The translations under genes and the position numbers were made by a program. The notes under the pieces were generated by a model. The model was not told where the DNA came from. It saw only the letters and a list, made by a program, of their open reading frames with translations, and made no database searches. Below are positions 29,538 to 36,122 of a DNA stretch of 64,000 nucleotides, in pieces. Where the stretch lies: NCBI GenBank assembly GCA_030431755.1, contig JAUIIK010000004.1, positions 1,042 to 65,041 of the forward strand, read 5' to 3'. How positions within the stretch are numbered: the first letter of the stretch is position 1; the number at the start of each line of letters is the position of its first letter. Origin of the DNA: Chloroflexia bacterium. Its GTDB lineage: Bacteria > Chloroflexota > Chloroflexia > Thermomicrobiales > CFX8.

Positions 29538-32500
29538 TCACCTGTTGCCCAGGAAGATCCCGACATCGTTCGTGTGCCAGTTCGCGCTGACGACATCGAG
29601 CCGCCCGTCCTCGTTGAAGTCGCCGGTCGCGACGCTGAATGGCGAAGAGACAACGGCCGCGCTTTCGAGCCCGACGAAGCCGCCGCTGTGATCGTTGAAG
29701 AGCACGCTGATGCTCGTCTCGCCGCTACAGCACGGGTAGGTTCCGTGGATGTTCGCGCTAATGATATCGAGCCAGCCGTCGCCGTCGATGTCGCCCAGCG
29801 CCACGCCCTTCGGCTCGTCGCCGACTGCAAAGTCGCCGCGCGCGAAGGAGCCGTCGCCGTTGCCGAGCAGCACCGTGACTGAGTCGCCGGCGTCATTGGC
29901 CGTAACGAGATCGATATCGCCGTCTCGGTTCACATCGCCGCCGCGCATCGAGTGCGGGCCGAAGTCGACCGCCTGGATCAAGCGCGCCGCGAAGGTGCCA
30001 TCGCCATTGCCCAACAGAACACTAACGGTGTTGCTGTTGTGGTCGGCCGTCGCGATATCGAGGTCGCCGTCGCCATTGAAGTCCTCGACGACAACCGAGT
30101 GTGGGGCCGAGCCCACATCGAGGTCGGTCGCGGCGGCAAAGGTGCCGTCGCCGTTGCCGAGCAGCAGGTTTGCGACCGAGCCGCCCCAGCAGACGACAAC
30201 CAGATCGAGGTCGCCATCCTCATTCACGTCGCCCGGCGCGACCTCGTGCGGGTTCGCGCAGGCCGCGAAGTGGCCGGCGAGCGTGAAGCTCCCGTCGCCA
30301 TTGCCGAGGTACACACTGACGTCGTTGCCGCCGGTGTCGTCCTGGTTGGCCGAGGCGAAGTCGAGATCGCCGTCGTTGTTGAAATCCCCGGTCGTCGCGA
30401 ACTTGGGATGGACGCCGGTCGGGTAGCTGCCGGTAGCGGCGAACCCGCCCTCGCCGTCGCCAAGCAAGATGACGACAGCGTCGTCGCCGGTCGTCGCAAC
30501 CACGAGGTCCAGATCGTTGTCACTGTTCACGTCGGCGACAGTCACGCCGTGGGCGTTCGTCCCGGCCGCCACCTTCGAGACCGGCTCGAAGAGCGGCGGG
30601 AGCGCCGCGGCGCTCGTCGTGAAGCTCCAAACCGCGTCTGGTGTCAGCGCATTGCCCGCCAGATCGGTCACGCCGCTCACGGTGACGATGTAGGTCGTCT
30701 CGTCAGTCAGTGTGCTATCTGGCGTCACCGTGATCGTCTGCGTCAGGTTGTCGTACTCGACGGTTGCGAGGACTACCGGGCCGCCCTGCTCCTCCAGCGT
30801 CACCGCGCCGGCAACCGTTGCCGGATCAAGCTCCTCGGAGAATGTCACGGTGATCGCGCTCTCGGGGTCGACGTCGACCGCGTCCGGCTCCGGCGTCTGG
30901 GCGGTGATCTCCGGCGGGGTCGTGTCGCCTTGGCCAGTGCCTTCGCAGTAGACGCGCGCCTCGCCCCAGTCGGTGTGGTCGTAGTAGACGTTGTCGCCGC
31001 CATTGGTCGTCACCAGCCGAAGCGTCGTAACGCCGGTGATATCGACGAGCACCGCTTGGGCCGCGTCGCCGCCTTCCAGCACTGGACTGGTGTAGAGCAG
31101 GCTCCCGTCGCCGTAGACGACGAAGGCCGCGCTGCCATTCGCCCCAACCTCGGCATCGATCCCGACGCTCGCCGCGAAGACCGTGCAGGTACCGTCGAGC
31201 GTGACGATGACCTCCGACAACGAATGCGAGCCGACGCCCTTAGCAAAGACCTGGCTGCCAATCGTCAGCGGCGCGCCATCGTCGGCGCTATCTTCGCCGT
31301 TGGACTGGTCGCGTTCGACCGGCCCCCAGCCGTTGGCAGAGGAATCCCAGGCAAGGTCGCTGATGTAGAACTGCTCGCCCGAAAGCTCGGCGGCGGTCGT
31401 GAAGCTCCAGACCTCGTCGTCCGCCAGCGGGTTCCCGGCAACGTCCGTCACGCCACCGGCAGCGCCGGAGATGGTCACGACGTAGGTCGTGCCCGCCGCC
31501 AGGTCGCTGTCGGGGTTGATCGTCAGCCGGTCCGTGGCCGCGCTGTAGCTGACGGTGACGCTCTCCGGCGTCGCCGCGCCCTGCTCGCGCAGTTCGACGT
31601 TGCCGCTCAGGCTGGCCGGGTCGAGGTCTTCCGAGAAGGTAGCCGTCACGTTCGCGCCAACGGCGACGTTTGACGCGCCATCGGCAGGATTGACCGAGAC
31701 AACTGCGGGCGGTGTCGTGTCCTCCGGCGCGGAGCCGTCGCAGACGACCTTGGCATCGGCCCAGTCGGCGTGATCGTAGGCGATACCGTCGCCAGCACCG
31801 GTGACGACCAGCCGCAACGTCGTCACGCCGGTGATGTCGGCCGAGAGCAGCTGTCCGGCGTCCGCGCCGGTCACGCCGGCCTCGGATGCTAGCAGCGCGC
31901 CGTCGCCCCAAACCTCGAAGGTCACCGAGCCGTTCGGCCCAACCTCGTCGTCAACGCCGACGGTGGCGCTGAAGAGCGCGCAAGTGCCGTCGAGCGCGAC
32001 GATGACCTCGGCCGCCGCGTGGACGCCGAGACCCTTGCTGTAGACGGTCCCGCCGATGGTCAATGGATTGCCGTCAGATGCGCCCTGCTCGCCGTTGGAC
32101 TGGTCGCGCTCGACCGGTCCCCAGCCGTTGGTCTGCCCATCCCAGGCCATGTCGCTAATGAAGATCTCGCTACTACCGGTCGTGTCGGGCGCGGTCGTGA
32201 AGGTCCAGGTCACATCCGCTGCCAGCGGGTTGTCAGCCAGGTCAGCGACGCCGTCAACACCTCCGCTAACCGTCGCGACGTAGGTTGTGTCGGCGCTGAG
32301 GTCGCTGGACGGCGTCAGCGTGACGCTTGCGGTCGTCTCGTCATAGTCGAGCGTCGCCGCGACCGGGCCGCCGCCCTGTTCCGCCAGGGTGACGTTGCCC
32401 GCCAGCGTCGCCTCGTCGATGGCTTCGGAGAAGGTCGCCGAGACCGTGGCGTCGACCGGCACGGCATTCACGCCATCCGTCGGGTCAACTGCCGAGACGA

Positions 32501-35500: not shown

Positions 35501-36122
35501 GCGGCAGGATGTCGGCCGCGTCATCCTCCCAGACACAGCCGGCGCCGGCGTTCTGGGCTGATGTTTGTAGCGCGAGCAGCTCGTCGGCGTCGCGGCCTTC
35601 TCCGGTAGCTACCGCCAGGCCAGACTGAACGAGCGCGTGGGCCAGCGAGGCGCCGTCGGGGGTGTAGACGTAGTACATCCGCCGCAGGTCTTCATCGAAG
35701 ATGAGCTCTGCGTCCTCCTCGGCGTGAAACCCGCCGTAGAGCATGCCCTGGAGAAATCCGGCAGCCTGCGCGCCGCAGACGGTGTTGGCCTCGAAGACAT
35801 CGACGCCGATCAGGCCGATACCTACCTGTGCGCCGTCAATCCAGGTTTCGAGGGTGTGGCCATCGATGCCGCGCGTGAAACCCGCGACATCGACCGGCCC
35901 GCTGCCGGCCGGCGGCGCGCCACCGGGGCCCAGCACTTCTGGTGGATCGTGCTCATGGCCTTCGTGGGCGAGGGTTACGGCCGGGTTCAGGCTGGCCAGA
36001 ATCGAGATAACTAACGCGGTCGCTGAGATGAACCGAAACCAACGGGTGAGGAGCATGAACCATGCTTTCTGGGCTAGCGCCGATGTTACGTTGTGTGGAA
36101 CGGCCTCGGGCGTCACACGCAC
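29538..36122 (-). CDS. Giant secreted multidomain protein: SNase-like + PQQ-type sugar dehydrogenase beta-propeller + 4x(NPCBM-like + SbsA/Big_5 Ig-like) + FG-GAP/VCBS repeats
   Basis: 2194 aa with a signal-like ISATALVISILASLNPAVTLA. IDGHTLE..IGLIGVDVFE..RRMYYVY is SNase-like. SGLNFPTDFAFLPDGRVLVAEKSGLV...GANFGWPCYEG is glucose/sorbosone-DH-like. Four ~255-aa units carry (F/I)(I/L)SDL.W....NGWGPVERDQSNGE...VGVDDEVG plus TTPP..V.P.DGA..V. The C-terminus has ~9 FG-GAP repeats (DxNxDGxxD). The first ~22 codons of the track ORF are doubtful. Confidence 0.9.
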   Translation of the reverse strand: MRVTPEAVPHNVTSALAQKAWFMLLTRWFRFISATALVISILASLNPAVTLAHEGHEHDPPEVLGPGGAPPAGSGPVDVAGFTRGIDGHTLETWIDGAQVGIGLIGVDVFEANTVCGAQAAGFLQGMLYGGFHAEEDAELIFDEDLRRMYYVYTPDGASLAHALVQSGLAVATGEGRDADELLALQTSAQNAGAGCVWEDDAADILPLGPPDAGVSFAERSALAVPTGFQAQSYVSGLNFPTDFAFLPDGRVLVAEKSGLVRIAVNGSVLATPFIDLRDQVNDYWDRGLLSVEVDPNFDVNGYVYFLFTYEHDETSYSGTKTGRLIRVTASGDTANPATEVVLLGTQAADSCDDLPVGTDCIPSDGPSHSTGGLRFAPDGTLFATLGEGANFNASNPQALRAQDLDSLGGKLVRIDANGQGLADNPFWTGNANDVRSKIWASGLRNAYRFTLRPSDGTPYIGDVGWVSWEEINVATPGANFGWPCYEGAFQQGSYSSETACQQLYSAGNASPPVITWDHTTGGSSVTGGVFYNGTSYPAEYDGAYFYGDYARNFIDWAQFGPDNTVQSGPNSFDDAAGGPVSFRIGPDGDVYYLSITTGEIRHVAYVGAPSGSESGFVSDLTWDSSSNGWGPVERDQSNGEDAAEDGGPLTINGSTFSKGIGVHAPSEVVIGLDGTCSQFISTVGVDDEVGDNGSVEFAVYSESTLLASSGVLTGADGPQSLTANLDGVTQLRLVVTDAGDNVYWDHADWADGWIECGQDQTPPTVTATSPENGAVDVPTSANVTATFTEPLDVQSLEGNVVLLDGATPVDADVSFDSNSGVLTLDPASALALDTIYDARITGGVDGVTDSAGNPLAADVAWSFTTAATGGPVPTISSPLATDTFIVGDEITYSGSAVDGSGAPLPDSALRWRVLIYHCNHIDCHAHQVLDETGTSGGAFTVPDHGDQYYFYVELTATDGGQSNSTSVEIHPETVDVTLNSTPSGLEVNLAGEQVAGPLTRPIVVGSVITVSVPSPQGAYTFESWSDGGARVHTVEVGATDLTLTATFAGDEPEDAIYLSDLTPAAATNHWGPVELDQSNGEQGAGDGGPLTIDGVVYPKGLGVHAPSTVTYEIDTCSMFRASIGLDDEVGDNGTVVFEVLGDGGLLYQSPVILGADAPLDIAVDIDGVTTLMLRVTDAGDNVYWDHADWGDARITCDEPAGDTTPPVVSAVDPTDGVNAVPVDATVSATFSEAIDEATLAGNVTLAEQGGGPVAATLDYDETTASVTLTPSSDLSADTTYVATVSGGVDGVADLADNPLAADVTWTFTTAPDTTGSSEIFISDMAWDGQTNGWGPVERDQSNGEQGASDGNPLTIGGTVYSKGLGVHAAAEVIVALDGTCALFSATVGVDDEVGPNGSVTFEVWGDGALLASEAGVTGADAGQLLSADITGVTTLRLVVTGAGDGIAYDHADWADAKVVCDGSAPEDTTPPAVVSVNPADGASNVAVGANVTATFSEDLDPASLSGNVELREQGAATPESVTVSYSAATDRLTINPDSDLAAGTTYVVTISGAAGGVTDVAGNPLADDEVWSFTTAAELSGEQFYISDLAWDSSANGWGPVERDQSNGEDSADDGAPLTIGSQVFAKGVGSHSLSEVIVTLDGTCTVFAASVGIDAEVGANGSAAFVVYGDGSLLYTSPVLEGGDAAQAVLVDITGVTTLRLVTTNGGDNVYYDHTDWGEARVYCEGTGQGDTTPPEITAQTPEPDAVDVDPESAITVTFSEELDPATVAGAVTLEEQGGPVVLATVEYDNLTQTITVTPDSTLTDETTYIVTVSGVTDLAGNALTPDAVWSFTTSAAALPPLFEPVSKVAAGTNAHGVTVADVNSDNDLDLVVATTGDDAVVILLGDGEGGFAATGSYPTGVHPKFATTGDFNNDGDLDFASANQDDTGGNDVSVYLGNGDGSFTLAGHFAACANPHEVAPGDVNEDGDLDLVVVCWGGSVANLLLGNGDGTFAAATDLDVGSAPHSVVVEDFNGDGDLDIATADHNSNTVSVLLGNGDGTFAARLIQAVDFGPHSMRGGDVNRDGDIDLVTANDAGDSVTVLLGNGDGSFARGDFAVGDEPKGVALGDIDGDGWLDIISANIHGTYPCCSGETSISVLFNDHSGGFVGLESAAVVSSPFSVATGDFNEDGRLDVVSANWHTNDVGIFLGNR

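Follow-up and report, generated by a model that had tools for sequence, protein, structure and literature searches.

What is the role of a very large secreted protein that is encoded among genes for polysaccharide synthesis and that joins a sugar-dehydrogenase-type propeller to a nuclease fold and to a series of carbohydrate-binding modules? The question is raised by a gene on the reverse strand of a 64,000-nucleotide stretch of DNA (‘the window’) from a soil bacterium of the class Chloroflexia and the order Thermomicrobiales (GenBank assembly GCA_030431755.1, contig JAUIIK010000004.1, positions 1,042 to 65,041), for which an initial annotation, made from the sequence alone, had described a secreted product with an unusual combination of domains. 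The answer that we favour, tentatively and as a possibility rather than a probability, is that the product is a glycan-tethered extracellular sugar oxidoreductase that would act on the cluster’s own polysaccharide, and that it belongs to a large and uncharacterised subfamily of the GSDH (glucose/sorbosone dehydrogenase) type. The more general role, that of a protein organising or modifying the extracellular matrix, is one that we infer from context and domain content.

The open reading frame (ORF) at 29538 to 36122, which counts 2194 codons from a GTG, exists as initially annotated, and its GC content at the first, second and third codon positions (0.66, 0.50 and 0.84) is of the coding type and typical for real genes of this window (65% GC). 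Its start, though, is moved: the true initiation codon is probably the ATG at 36056 (Met23 of the ORF), giving 2172 amino acids and leaving the preceding 22 codons untranslated, because the N-termini of the orthologues align from the equivalent Met and because the signal peptide begins there. That signal peptide was read by eye from the sequence, with no predictor, as MLLTRWFRF-ISATALVISILASL-NPAVTLA/HEG (the slash marks the cleavage site), and the orthologues have the same layout. Residue numbers below are those of the ORF, and the parts of the protein are, in order:

29538-36056 (-): coding sequence, 2172 amino acids and a stop codon from the probable ATG at 36056 (the mechanical ORF reaches the GTG at 36122)
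35967-36056 (-): Sec-type signal peptide, residues 23-52, MLLTRWFRFISATALVISILASLNPAVTLA, with a basic n-region, a hydrophobic core and the cleavage motif TLA/H
35946-35966 (-): His-rich mature N-terminus HEGHEHD, from predicted cleavage and orthologue comparison
35544-35885 (-): SNase-fold domain, degenerate in its catalytic site, residues 80-193, from Pfam, a profile search and superposition of an AlphaFold2 (AF2) model
34338-35408 (-): GSDH-type six-bladed propeller, residues 239-595, with His369 at 35016-35018 and Arg445-Asn446 at 34785-34790
33516-34286 (-): unit 1, an NPCBM domain (33837-34286) and a Big_5 domain (33516-33836)
33207-33515 (-): insA, an Ig-like domain with W912, H918, H925, H927, D944-H945 and a C919-C924 hairpin pair; no Pfam match
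32964-33206 (-): insB, an Ig-like domain with a weak match to a divergent InlB B-repeat (Flg_new_2, E 0.0066) and the conserved motif WSDGG...H
32184-32963 (-): unit 2, NPCBM and Big_5
31386-32174 (-): unit 3, NPCBM and Big_5, its NPCBM part matching CBM51-containing Clostridium perfringens proteins
30606-31379 (-): unit 4, NPCBM and Big_5
29541-30605 (-): C-terminal seven-bladed FG-GAP propeller, with seven Pfam stretches and seven calcium-type DxNxDGxxD motifs

The propeller and its partner domains

The assignment of the propeller to the PQQ-type (pyrroloquinoline quinone) glucose/sorbosone-dehydrogenase-like proteins, already proposed in the initial annotation, is borne out by the Pfam model GSDH (PF07995; 152.9 bits against a cutoff of 25) and by PDB matches to PQQ aldose dehydrogenases (2G8S at E 2.9e-22, 7CDY, 2ISM and 3A9G, in a range of E 1e-19 to 3e-22). 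The six-bladed fold is shared with the soluble enzymes (Escherichia coli YliI/Asd, 2G8S; P. aerophilum, 3A9G/3A9H; T. thermophilus, 2ISM; 7CDY; and the soluble glucose dehydrogenase, sGDH, of A. calcoaceticus, 1C9U), and so are a catalytic His, an Arg-Asn pair and a Glu-Glu/GWP region, whereas those enzymes are single-domain proteins of ~350-450 residues and the present one is secreted, multi-domain and 2172 residues long. In sGDH, His144 is the catalytic His and the R228/N229 pair contacts O5 and O4 of PQQ (PMC6881789). The corresponding residues of the present family, His369 and Arg445-Asn446, are invariant in 114 of 114 homologues, with Glu470 kept in 112 and Glu471 in 104 of them; across the GTDB loci the counts are 80/81 for His369, 80/81 for Arg445 and 73/81 for Asn446. 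Features peculiar to the family are two Cys pairs within the propeller, an insertion of ~25 residues, bracketed by Cys, ahead of the catalytic His, and three family-invariant basic residues, R401, K438 and R449, that are absent from YliI.

Residues 870-1053 form two Ig-like beta-sandwich domains in the AF2 model (predicted local distance difference test, pLDDT, 94.2), here called insA and insB and together insAB. This region had been described as an extra Ig-like insert between units 1 and 2; its Ig-like character stands, and it now appears as two domains instead of one and as a family-wide module instead of an insertion. Of the 120 best homologues 103 have the pair, as have almost all complete ORFs of the GSDH family at 80 GTDB loci, and proteins of only ~850-900 residues in the cultured Archangium gephyra, Corallococcus exercitus and Pyxidicoccus fallax consist of little else (propeller, spacer, insAB). 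Judged from these occurrences, no other module accompanies the propeller as constantly as insAB does, the variable parts being NPCBM, PKD, PA14, LamG, fn3 and others.

No solved relative of insA was found, and no Pfam model matches it. Its W912, H918, H925, H927 and D944-H945 are invariant, or nearly so, in the homologue set, and in a comparison of 48 sequences across phyla H918 is kept in 46, H925 in 47, H927 in 37 (with Asp in 9), D944 in 45 and H945 in 47. According to the DSSP string, one strand stops at H918 and the next starts with H925 and H927, within a hairpin that is stapled by C919-C924; by virtue of beta-hairpin geometry, the three His residues of the model should face the same side, in a tri-His arrangement. 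The conserved His/Asp cluster is a probable metal site. Another His-rich segment lies at the mature N-terminus: the orthologues and the next clade have HEGHDHD, HGGHDHDD, HPGHEGHDD or HHDGDH after the signal peptide, other family members do not, and this tail may bind metal as well. Behind it stands a linear motif, GGAPPxGSGP (residues 67-76, ~35895-35924), that precedes the SNase-like domain and is conserved in most family members.

The N-terminal domain bears on a quite different explanation, namely that the protein is an extracellular nuclease that remodels the extracellular DNA (eDNA) of the matrix. The Pfam model SNase (PF00565) gives 19.5 bits in the whole protein (gathering score 21) and 24.6 bits for the isolated segment; a profile built from 27 sequences of the family’s N-terminal domain matches staphylococcal thermonuclease at E 2e-15; and the AF2 model of the domain (pLDDT 91.5) superposes on SNase structures with template modelling (TM) scores of 0.73/0.82 and a root-mean-square deviation of ~2.4 A. 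On profile and model together, the OB-type SNase fold, shared with staphylococcal nuclease and with non-catalytic SN-like domains, is certain. D40, E43 and R87 are also kept in the present protein, in a numbering that follows the staphylococcal sequence and for which the HMMER alignment with the PDB thermonuclease served as a check.

The remaining catalytic positions, however, are degenerate. D21 has become His, Y85, Y113 and Y115 are absent, and R35 aligns with a Gly of GIGLIGVDVFE, as the initial annotation had noticed for the first catalytic Arg. Of 57 relatives, 48 have Gly in place of R35, only 15 retain E43, 25 retain D40 and 50 retain R87; the substitution of R35 and the loss of E43 in most of these sequences imply that selection is not maintaining a nuclease site. 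By comparison with the staphylococcal enzyme, the family’s domain has gained a disulfide pair and an Arg at the G88 position, both invariant, and it is always located N-terminal to the GSDH propeller. Read from this alignment, the domain is a pseudo-nuclease, and nuclease activity is not to be included in its functions; that the protein works on eDNA as a nuclease is very improbable.

Binding modules and gene neighbourhood

Besides the GSDH propeller, the whole-protein Pfam search returned NPCBM four times (625 bits), Big_5 four times (313 bits) and FG-GAP_3/FG-GAP, so that the four NPCBM-like and Ig-like (Big_5) units of the initial annotation are retained, with their coordinates right to within ~15 nt. 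The NPCBM domains align over their full length with carbohydrate-binding modules (CBMs) of family 51 from C. perfringens glycoside hydrolases and ZmpB (7JS4 at E 4e-29, 2VMG and 2VMH at E 1e-17), which are attached to a hydrolase or peptidase and not, as here, to an oxidoreductase-type propeller. The C-terminal propeller comprises seven FG-GAP repeats instead of the roughly nine FG-GAP/VCBS repeats first supposed, the seven DxNxDGxxD motifs being spaced 48-57 residues apart, and no cell-wall anchor is recognisable after it. One orthologue (P0005) seems to be without the FG-GAP domain, but tblastn recovers its continuation in a different frame of the contig (L003:15470-16526; frames 2 and 3), a sign of a frameshift, an assembly indel or a sequencing error.

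A repetitive gene on a metagenome-type contig might owe its repeats to an assembly that had collapsed, expanded or chimerically joined them. The four units are nonetheless only 52-57% identical as protein, and at the DNA level no two of them share an identical stretch longer than 29 nt; from their divergence in DNA the initial annotation had already concluded that they are probably no artefacts. Each unit has its closest match at the corresponding position of P0002 and P0005, orthologues that also have four units (68-77% for units 1 to 3 and 58-70% for unit 4, against 51-60% for other positions); the unit array is therefore older than the separation of these species. Independent assemblies, among them that of P0002 (78% identity over 100% of the length), show the full architecture in collinear order, and four further orthologues of ~1910 residues, with three units, also come from independent assemblies; a 1.97-Mb contig is among the assemblies concerned. 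GC content, finally, is uniform across the gene. Recent unit duplication and assembly artefact were rejected on these grounds, and the probability that we would still assign to a misassembly is vanishingly small.

The genes on either side place the protein in a cluster for polysaccharide synthesis, between manA and a Wzz/BY-kinase (bacterial tyrosine kinase) gene on the same strand, just as first stated:

37230-38384 (-): manC, upstream, overlapping the manA-like gene by 4 nt
36280-37233 (-): manA-like gene, upstream, adjoining the gene
36152-36181 (-): promoter-like site TTGACG-18-TATTCT in the gap between manA and the gene, from a consensus match and conservation in four orthologous loci
27715-29379 (-): Wzz/GNVR and P-loop BY-kinase-type co-polymerase gene, downstream of the gene
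20118-27567 (+): divergent glycan genes, with two family 4 glycosyltransferases (GT4; 20118-22464), a family 2 glycosyltransferase (GT2; 24714-26030) and a priming transferase (Bac_transf; 26062-27567)

The gene had been said to be embedded in a glycan operon. That it lies in the same cluster is upheld; a place in the same operon is not, given the gaps of ~160-220 nt on each side and the promoter-like site that is conserved in orthologues. No terminator-like site was found in the gaps flanking the gene, and an Rfam search returned no RNA element near the gene and no tRNAs. When the upstream region (36057-36290, reverse strand) was aligned with those of three orthologous loci (L001:4320-4550, L002:9745-10000 and L003:9755-10000), four blocks proved to be conserved and the rest diverged: AGAAxAAAGTACxAA; TTGAC (the -35 element); TTCCTATTCTCTAGGAGA..GTAC (the -10 element and a palindromic CTAG core); and GAAAGCAxGG directly before the start codon. 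An AAAGTAC...GGTAC motif flanks the -35 and -10 elements in all four regions. This pattern suggests a promoter, possibly with a GTAC-containing operator.

The orthologues P0002, P0004 and P0005 (67-78% identity) have the same gene order around them as the window (glnA / manC-manA-gene-BY-kinase), and Wzy, GT4, GT2 and flippase genes lie downstream of this block in their loci. Among more distant relatives (46-51% identity over the best aligned segment), P0020, P0028 and P0035 are also found inside clusters with Wzy, flippase, glycosyltransferase and priming-transferase genes, and P0013 is outside any such cluster. At one locus (L007) the gene shares 4 nt with the GT4 gene upstream of it and 20 nt with an NPCBM gene on its downstream side, and at another (L006) it is separated from its neighbour by a gap of only 8 nt. 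Judged from this gene order, the link of the gene to the polysaccharide cluster is not accidental.

For a wider view, loci were surveyed by phmmer with a small reference set of polysaccharide-synthesis proteins taken from the window and from the fetched loci, a conservative and crude procedure that replaced a Pfam scan in which 98 genes near those of the NPCBM type had been pooled and which had given family counts without per-locus resolution. At least two core polysaccharide genes were found within 7 kb on either side in 7 of 13 NPCBM-bearing loci and in 9 of 51 NPCBM-lacking ones (Fisher p = 0.013, or 0.028 with one orthologue removed), a comparison between the two subsets that has no genome-wide baseline. 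The association of the family with polysaccharide loci, as far as this survey of gene content goes, is shown to be recurrent and not universal.

Several further observations were made in these neighbourhoods. The NPCBM gene that follows the GSDH gene at L007 (12571-14232) encodes a separate, NPCBM-only protein, and in some relatives two GSDH-insAB paralogues share a locus (L047, L080, L084 and L086), adjacent to each other in L047 and L084. In the window itself, QueC (22440-23093, reverse strand) and a 452-residue protein with a bacterial eRF1-like domain (baeRF_family10; 23053-24411, forward strand) lie between the GT4 pair and the GT2 and priming-transferase genes, their ORFs overlapping by ~40 nt on opposite strands. 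At 13001-17287 on the forward strand a YfhO-like membrane protein with 11 transmembrane segments (770 residues) is followed by a GT2 and an S-adenosylmethionine-dependent methyltransferase with overlapping ends. A 989-residue protein with Germane domains and a C-terminal BP74_N domain (47512-50481, reverse strand) has a BP74_N counterpart near L002 (3119-4804), so that the wider neighbourhood is syntenic too. Two c-di-GMP-I riboswitches (RF01051; 4073-4164 and 5205-5296, forward strand; 68 and 61.5 bits) each stand upstream of a small ORF (4228-4740, 170 residues; 5512-6033, 173 residues); the two products have no Pfam match and are paralogues of each other (40% identity, E 2e-31), and they are followed by an HD-GYP (HD_5) and GGDEF protein (6082-8109). 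Together these look like a c-di-GMP-controlled module, ~20 kb from the glycan genes.

Weighing an oxidoreductase against a scaffold and a scavenger

If the protein is a tethered oxidoreductase, its parts could work together as follows. The four CBM51-like NPCBM modules, spaced by Big_5 domains, would bind multivalently to the cluster’s extracellular polysaccharide, presumably a mannose-derived one, and the calcium-type FG-GAP propeller would provide a second attachment point; tethering of this kind would hold the six-bladed propeller against the polymer. There the His base and the Arg-Asn pair would oxidise a sugar hydroxyl, most simply at C1 of the reducing end to give a lactone or aldonate, with a cofactor that is PQQ or similar to it and is held in a non-canonical way. 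The insA/insB pair, with its His/Asp cluster, would supply a probable metal site, which accompanies the propeller from protein to protein and could serve in electron transfer or in structure, and the SNase pseudo-nuclease would be a structural or ligand-binding module and not a DNase.

A series of observations on the cofactor, on insAB and on the setting of the gene weighs against such an enzyme. The ‘RIRD’ segment of YliI, which contains the equivalents of the PQQ-carboxylate binders R406 and R408 of sGDH, aligns with G579-P-V581-S (residues 579-582), and G, P and V occupy the former positions of the Arg pair in at least 96 of 114 homologues, that is, family-wide; the NCBIfam model TIGR03606 (non_repeat_PQQ) is not reached, with 76 bits against a cutoff of 434.55. 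PQQ dependence of the propeller, plausible as it is, is uncertain and unproven, because the Arg pair is replaced throughout the family and because the score falls so far under that cutoff. Judged by alignment, the cofactor site is different from that of every solved PQQ sugar dehydrogenase with which it was compared. The invariant R401, K438 and R449 might substitute for the lost pair, and a relocated carboxylate site is possible because the fungal enzymes of auxiliary activity family 12 (AA12) take one such Arg from a different part of the chain than the bacterial enzymes do (PMC6881789). No pqq genes lie within the 64-kb window, and no electron acceptor outside the cell is evident. As to insAB, a profile search of 1.84 billion representatives returned 8,133 proteins at E<=1e-10, and of the 83 proteins with the full didomain among the best 142 matches, 25 lack a GSDH propeller; in multi-copy or GSDH-less proteins, moreover, the His cluster is kept in only about half of the copies. 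For these two reasons insAB is best described, from its sequence distribution, as a mobile Ig module whose His-cluster version accompanies the propeller, though not exclusively; the idea that it is an obligate and exclusive GSDH partner was discarded on the same evidence. With respect to setting, the gene probably has its own promoter inside the conserved cluster, since the -35 and -10 blocks are conserved in upstream regions that have otherwise diverged; no homologue of the Wzy and flippase proteins of the orthologous loci is detectable in the window; and 6 of the 13 NPCBM-bearing loci, together with most of the NPCBM-lacking ones (42 of 51), lie outside polysaccharide loci.

The first part of this evidence might be taken to mean that the protein is not an enzyme at all and that every module binds, the whole acting as a matrix adhesin or scaffold that cross-links polysaccharide (and possibly proteins or eDNA too) on the surface of the cell. 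Modules of the adhesion or lectin type dominate the chain (four NPCBM, four Big_5 and two Ig domains and the FG-GAP propeller), its SNase domain already counts as a pseudo-enzyme, the Arg pair of canonical PQQ sites is lost, and insAB-type and insB-type domains occur in long tandem arrays of other proteins. HHIP, a non-enzymatic receptor in which a GSDH-fold propeller is likewise extracellular and part of a multi-domain protein, is also among the PDB matches (E 6e-8). That match is far weaker than those to true dehydrogenases, however, and the present family keeps the catalytic triad of the latter: His369 and Arg445-Asn446 are present in every homologue of the set and almost constant across phyla, and much the same goes for Glu470 and Glu471, a degree of conservation that would be hard to explain for pure binding. 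A scaffold with no catalytic function is thus, in our estimate, somewhat doubtful.

The second part bears on a different proposal, in which the protein is a secreted scavenging or auxiliary oxidoreductase, similar to AA12, that attacks foreign glycans (of plants, fungi or microbial necromass), its neighbourhood of polysaccharide genes being functionally meaningless. The family shuffles binding modules that are typical of secreted carbohydrate-active enzymes (PKD, PA14, LamG, F5/8C, malectin and fn3); the predicted promoter of its own and the many loci outside polysaccharide clusters agree with this proposal; fungi are known to possess PQQ dehydrogenases that carry CBMs (PMC6881789, PMC5960967); and an exoprotein with GSDH and CBM2 domains, found in a cyanobacterial biofilm exoproteome, has been interpreted as associated with carbon breakdown (PMC4937211). 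On the other side stand the synteny that is kept across orthologues, the overlap with a glycosyltransferase gene at L007 and the 8-nt gap at L006, the more frequent polysaccharide-locus context of the NPCBM-bearing subset, and the absence of nearby glycoside hydrolase or LPMO-like (lytic polysaccharide monooxygenase) genes in the window. Scavenging of foreign glycans consequently appears unlikely, and we continue to prefer an oxidoreductase that is tethered to, and acts upon, the polysaccharide of its own cluster.

Comparison with the closest known systems defines what would be distinct about such an enzyme. Its differences from the soluble PQQ aldose dehydrogenases are the G-P-V sequence in place of the carboxylate Arg pair, the two extra Cys pairs, the ~25-residue insertion and the score below TIGR03606. 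The fungal pyranose dehydrogenase CcPDH, an extracellular PQQ enzyme with the order AA8 cytochrome, AA12 and CBM1 (PMC6881789), resembles the present protein, by architecture only, in coupling an extracellular GSDH-like propeller to a CBM and to an Ig-like beta-sandwich partner, and it too binds the PQQ carboxylates through residues unlike those of the bacterial enzymes (PMC6881789). The present protein, by contrast, has no haem domain; its insA carries a His/Asp cluster where the partner domain of CcPDH has Met/His haem ligands, its binding modules are of the NPCBM/CBM51 type and not CBM1, and its context is bacterial polysaccharide synthesis. The cyanobacterial GSDH-CBM2 exoprotein, similarly secreted and likewise biochemically uncharacterised, differs in the type of its CBM and in that no synthesis cluster was reported for it (PMC4937211).

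Breadth of the family and its possible meaning

The combination of domains that had first seemed unusual is in fact common. An SNase-like domain is joined to GSDH in 57 of the 120 best homologues, GSDH with NPCBM, with or without FG-GAP, recurs in dozens of them, and the GSDH subfamily, as defined by the motifs NxGWPCYEG and VNDYWDRGL, has at least 600 matches in GTDB species genomes. The 80 GTDB loci that were retained come from Chloroflexota, Acidobacteriota, Myxococcota, Actinomycetota, lineages of the candidate phyla radiation (CPR), Deinococcota, Verrucomicrobiota and Proteobacteria, with one Woesearchaeota bin also among them; the nearest are found in bins of an uncultured Chloroflexia (76%) and of Thermomicrobiales (75%). 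In line with this, the glnA of the window groups, at the 90% level of clustering, with a protein from a Thermomicrobiales MAG. None of the domain types is new, and there are GSDH/AA12 enzymes that carry CBMs. Searches of the open-access literature for NPCBM with sorbosone dehydrogenase, and for GSDH in polysaccharide clusters, returned no description of the family and no characterised member. As far as the searchable literature shows, then, what is undescribed is the core of the subfamily (the SNase pseudo-nuclease where present, the propeller and the His-cluster Ig pair), its altered cofactor pocket and its recurrent placement in polysaccharide loci.

Bacterial exopolysaccharides are modified after polymerisation by acylation, pyruvylation, deacetylation and epimerisation. 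To our knowledge, an extracellular dehydrogenase that is dedicated to the cell’s own polysaccharide is not among the known modifications. A more far-reaching proposal is that the family constitutes an unrecognised class of post-polymerisation polysaccharide oxidases, with GSDH propellers, a non-canonical cofactor site and a His/Asp-cluster Ig domain as a built-in metal or redox partner, which would act in Wzx/Wzy-type loci of several phyla and add aldonate or keto groups to the polymer; in this full form the proposal is distinctly unlikely.

Should the protein turn out instead to scavenge foreign glycans or to serve as a scaffold of the lectin type, it would be an ordinary, though large, surface protein, and its architecture alone, being common, is unsurprising. 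The context of polysaccharide synthesis, in turn, provides a testable hypothesis for a large and uncharacterised family, and the biochemistry of that family is accessible to test because the three myxobacteria named above, which are cultivable, carry its minimal form, GSDH with insAB. If the hypothesis of a tethered oxidoreductase is true, an oxidative step would be added to the chemistry of the bacterial matrix.

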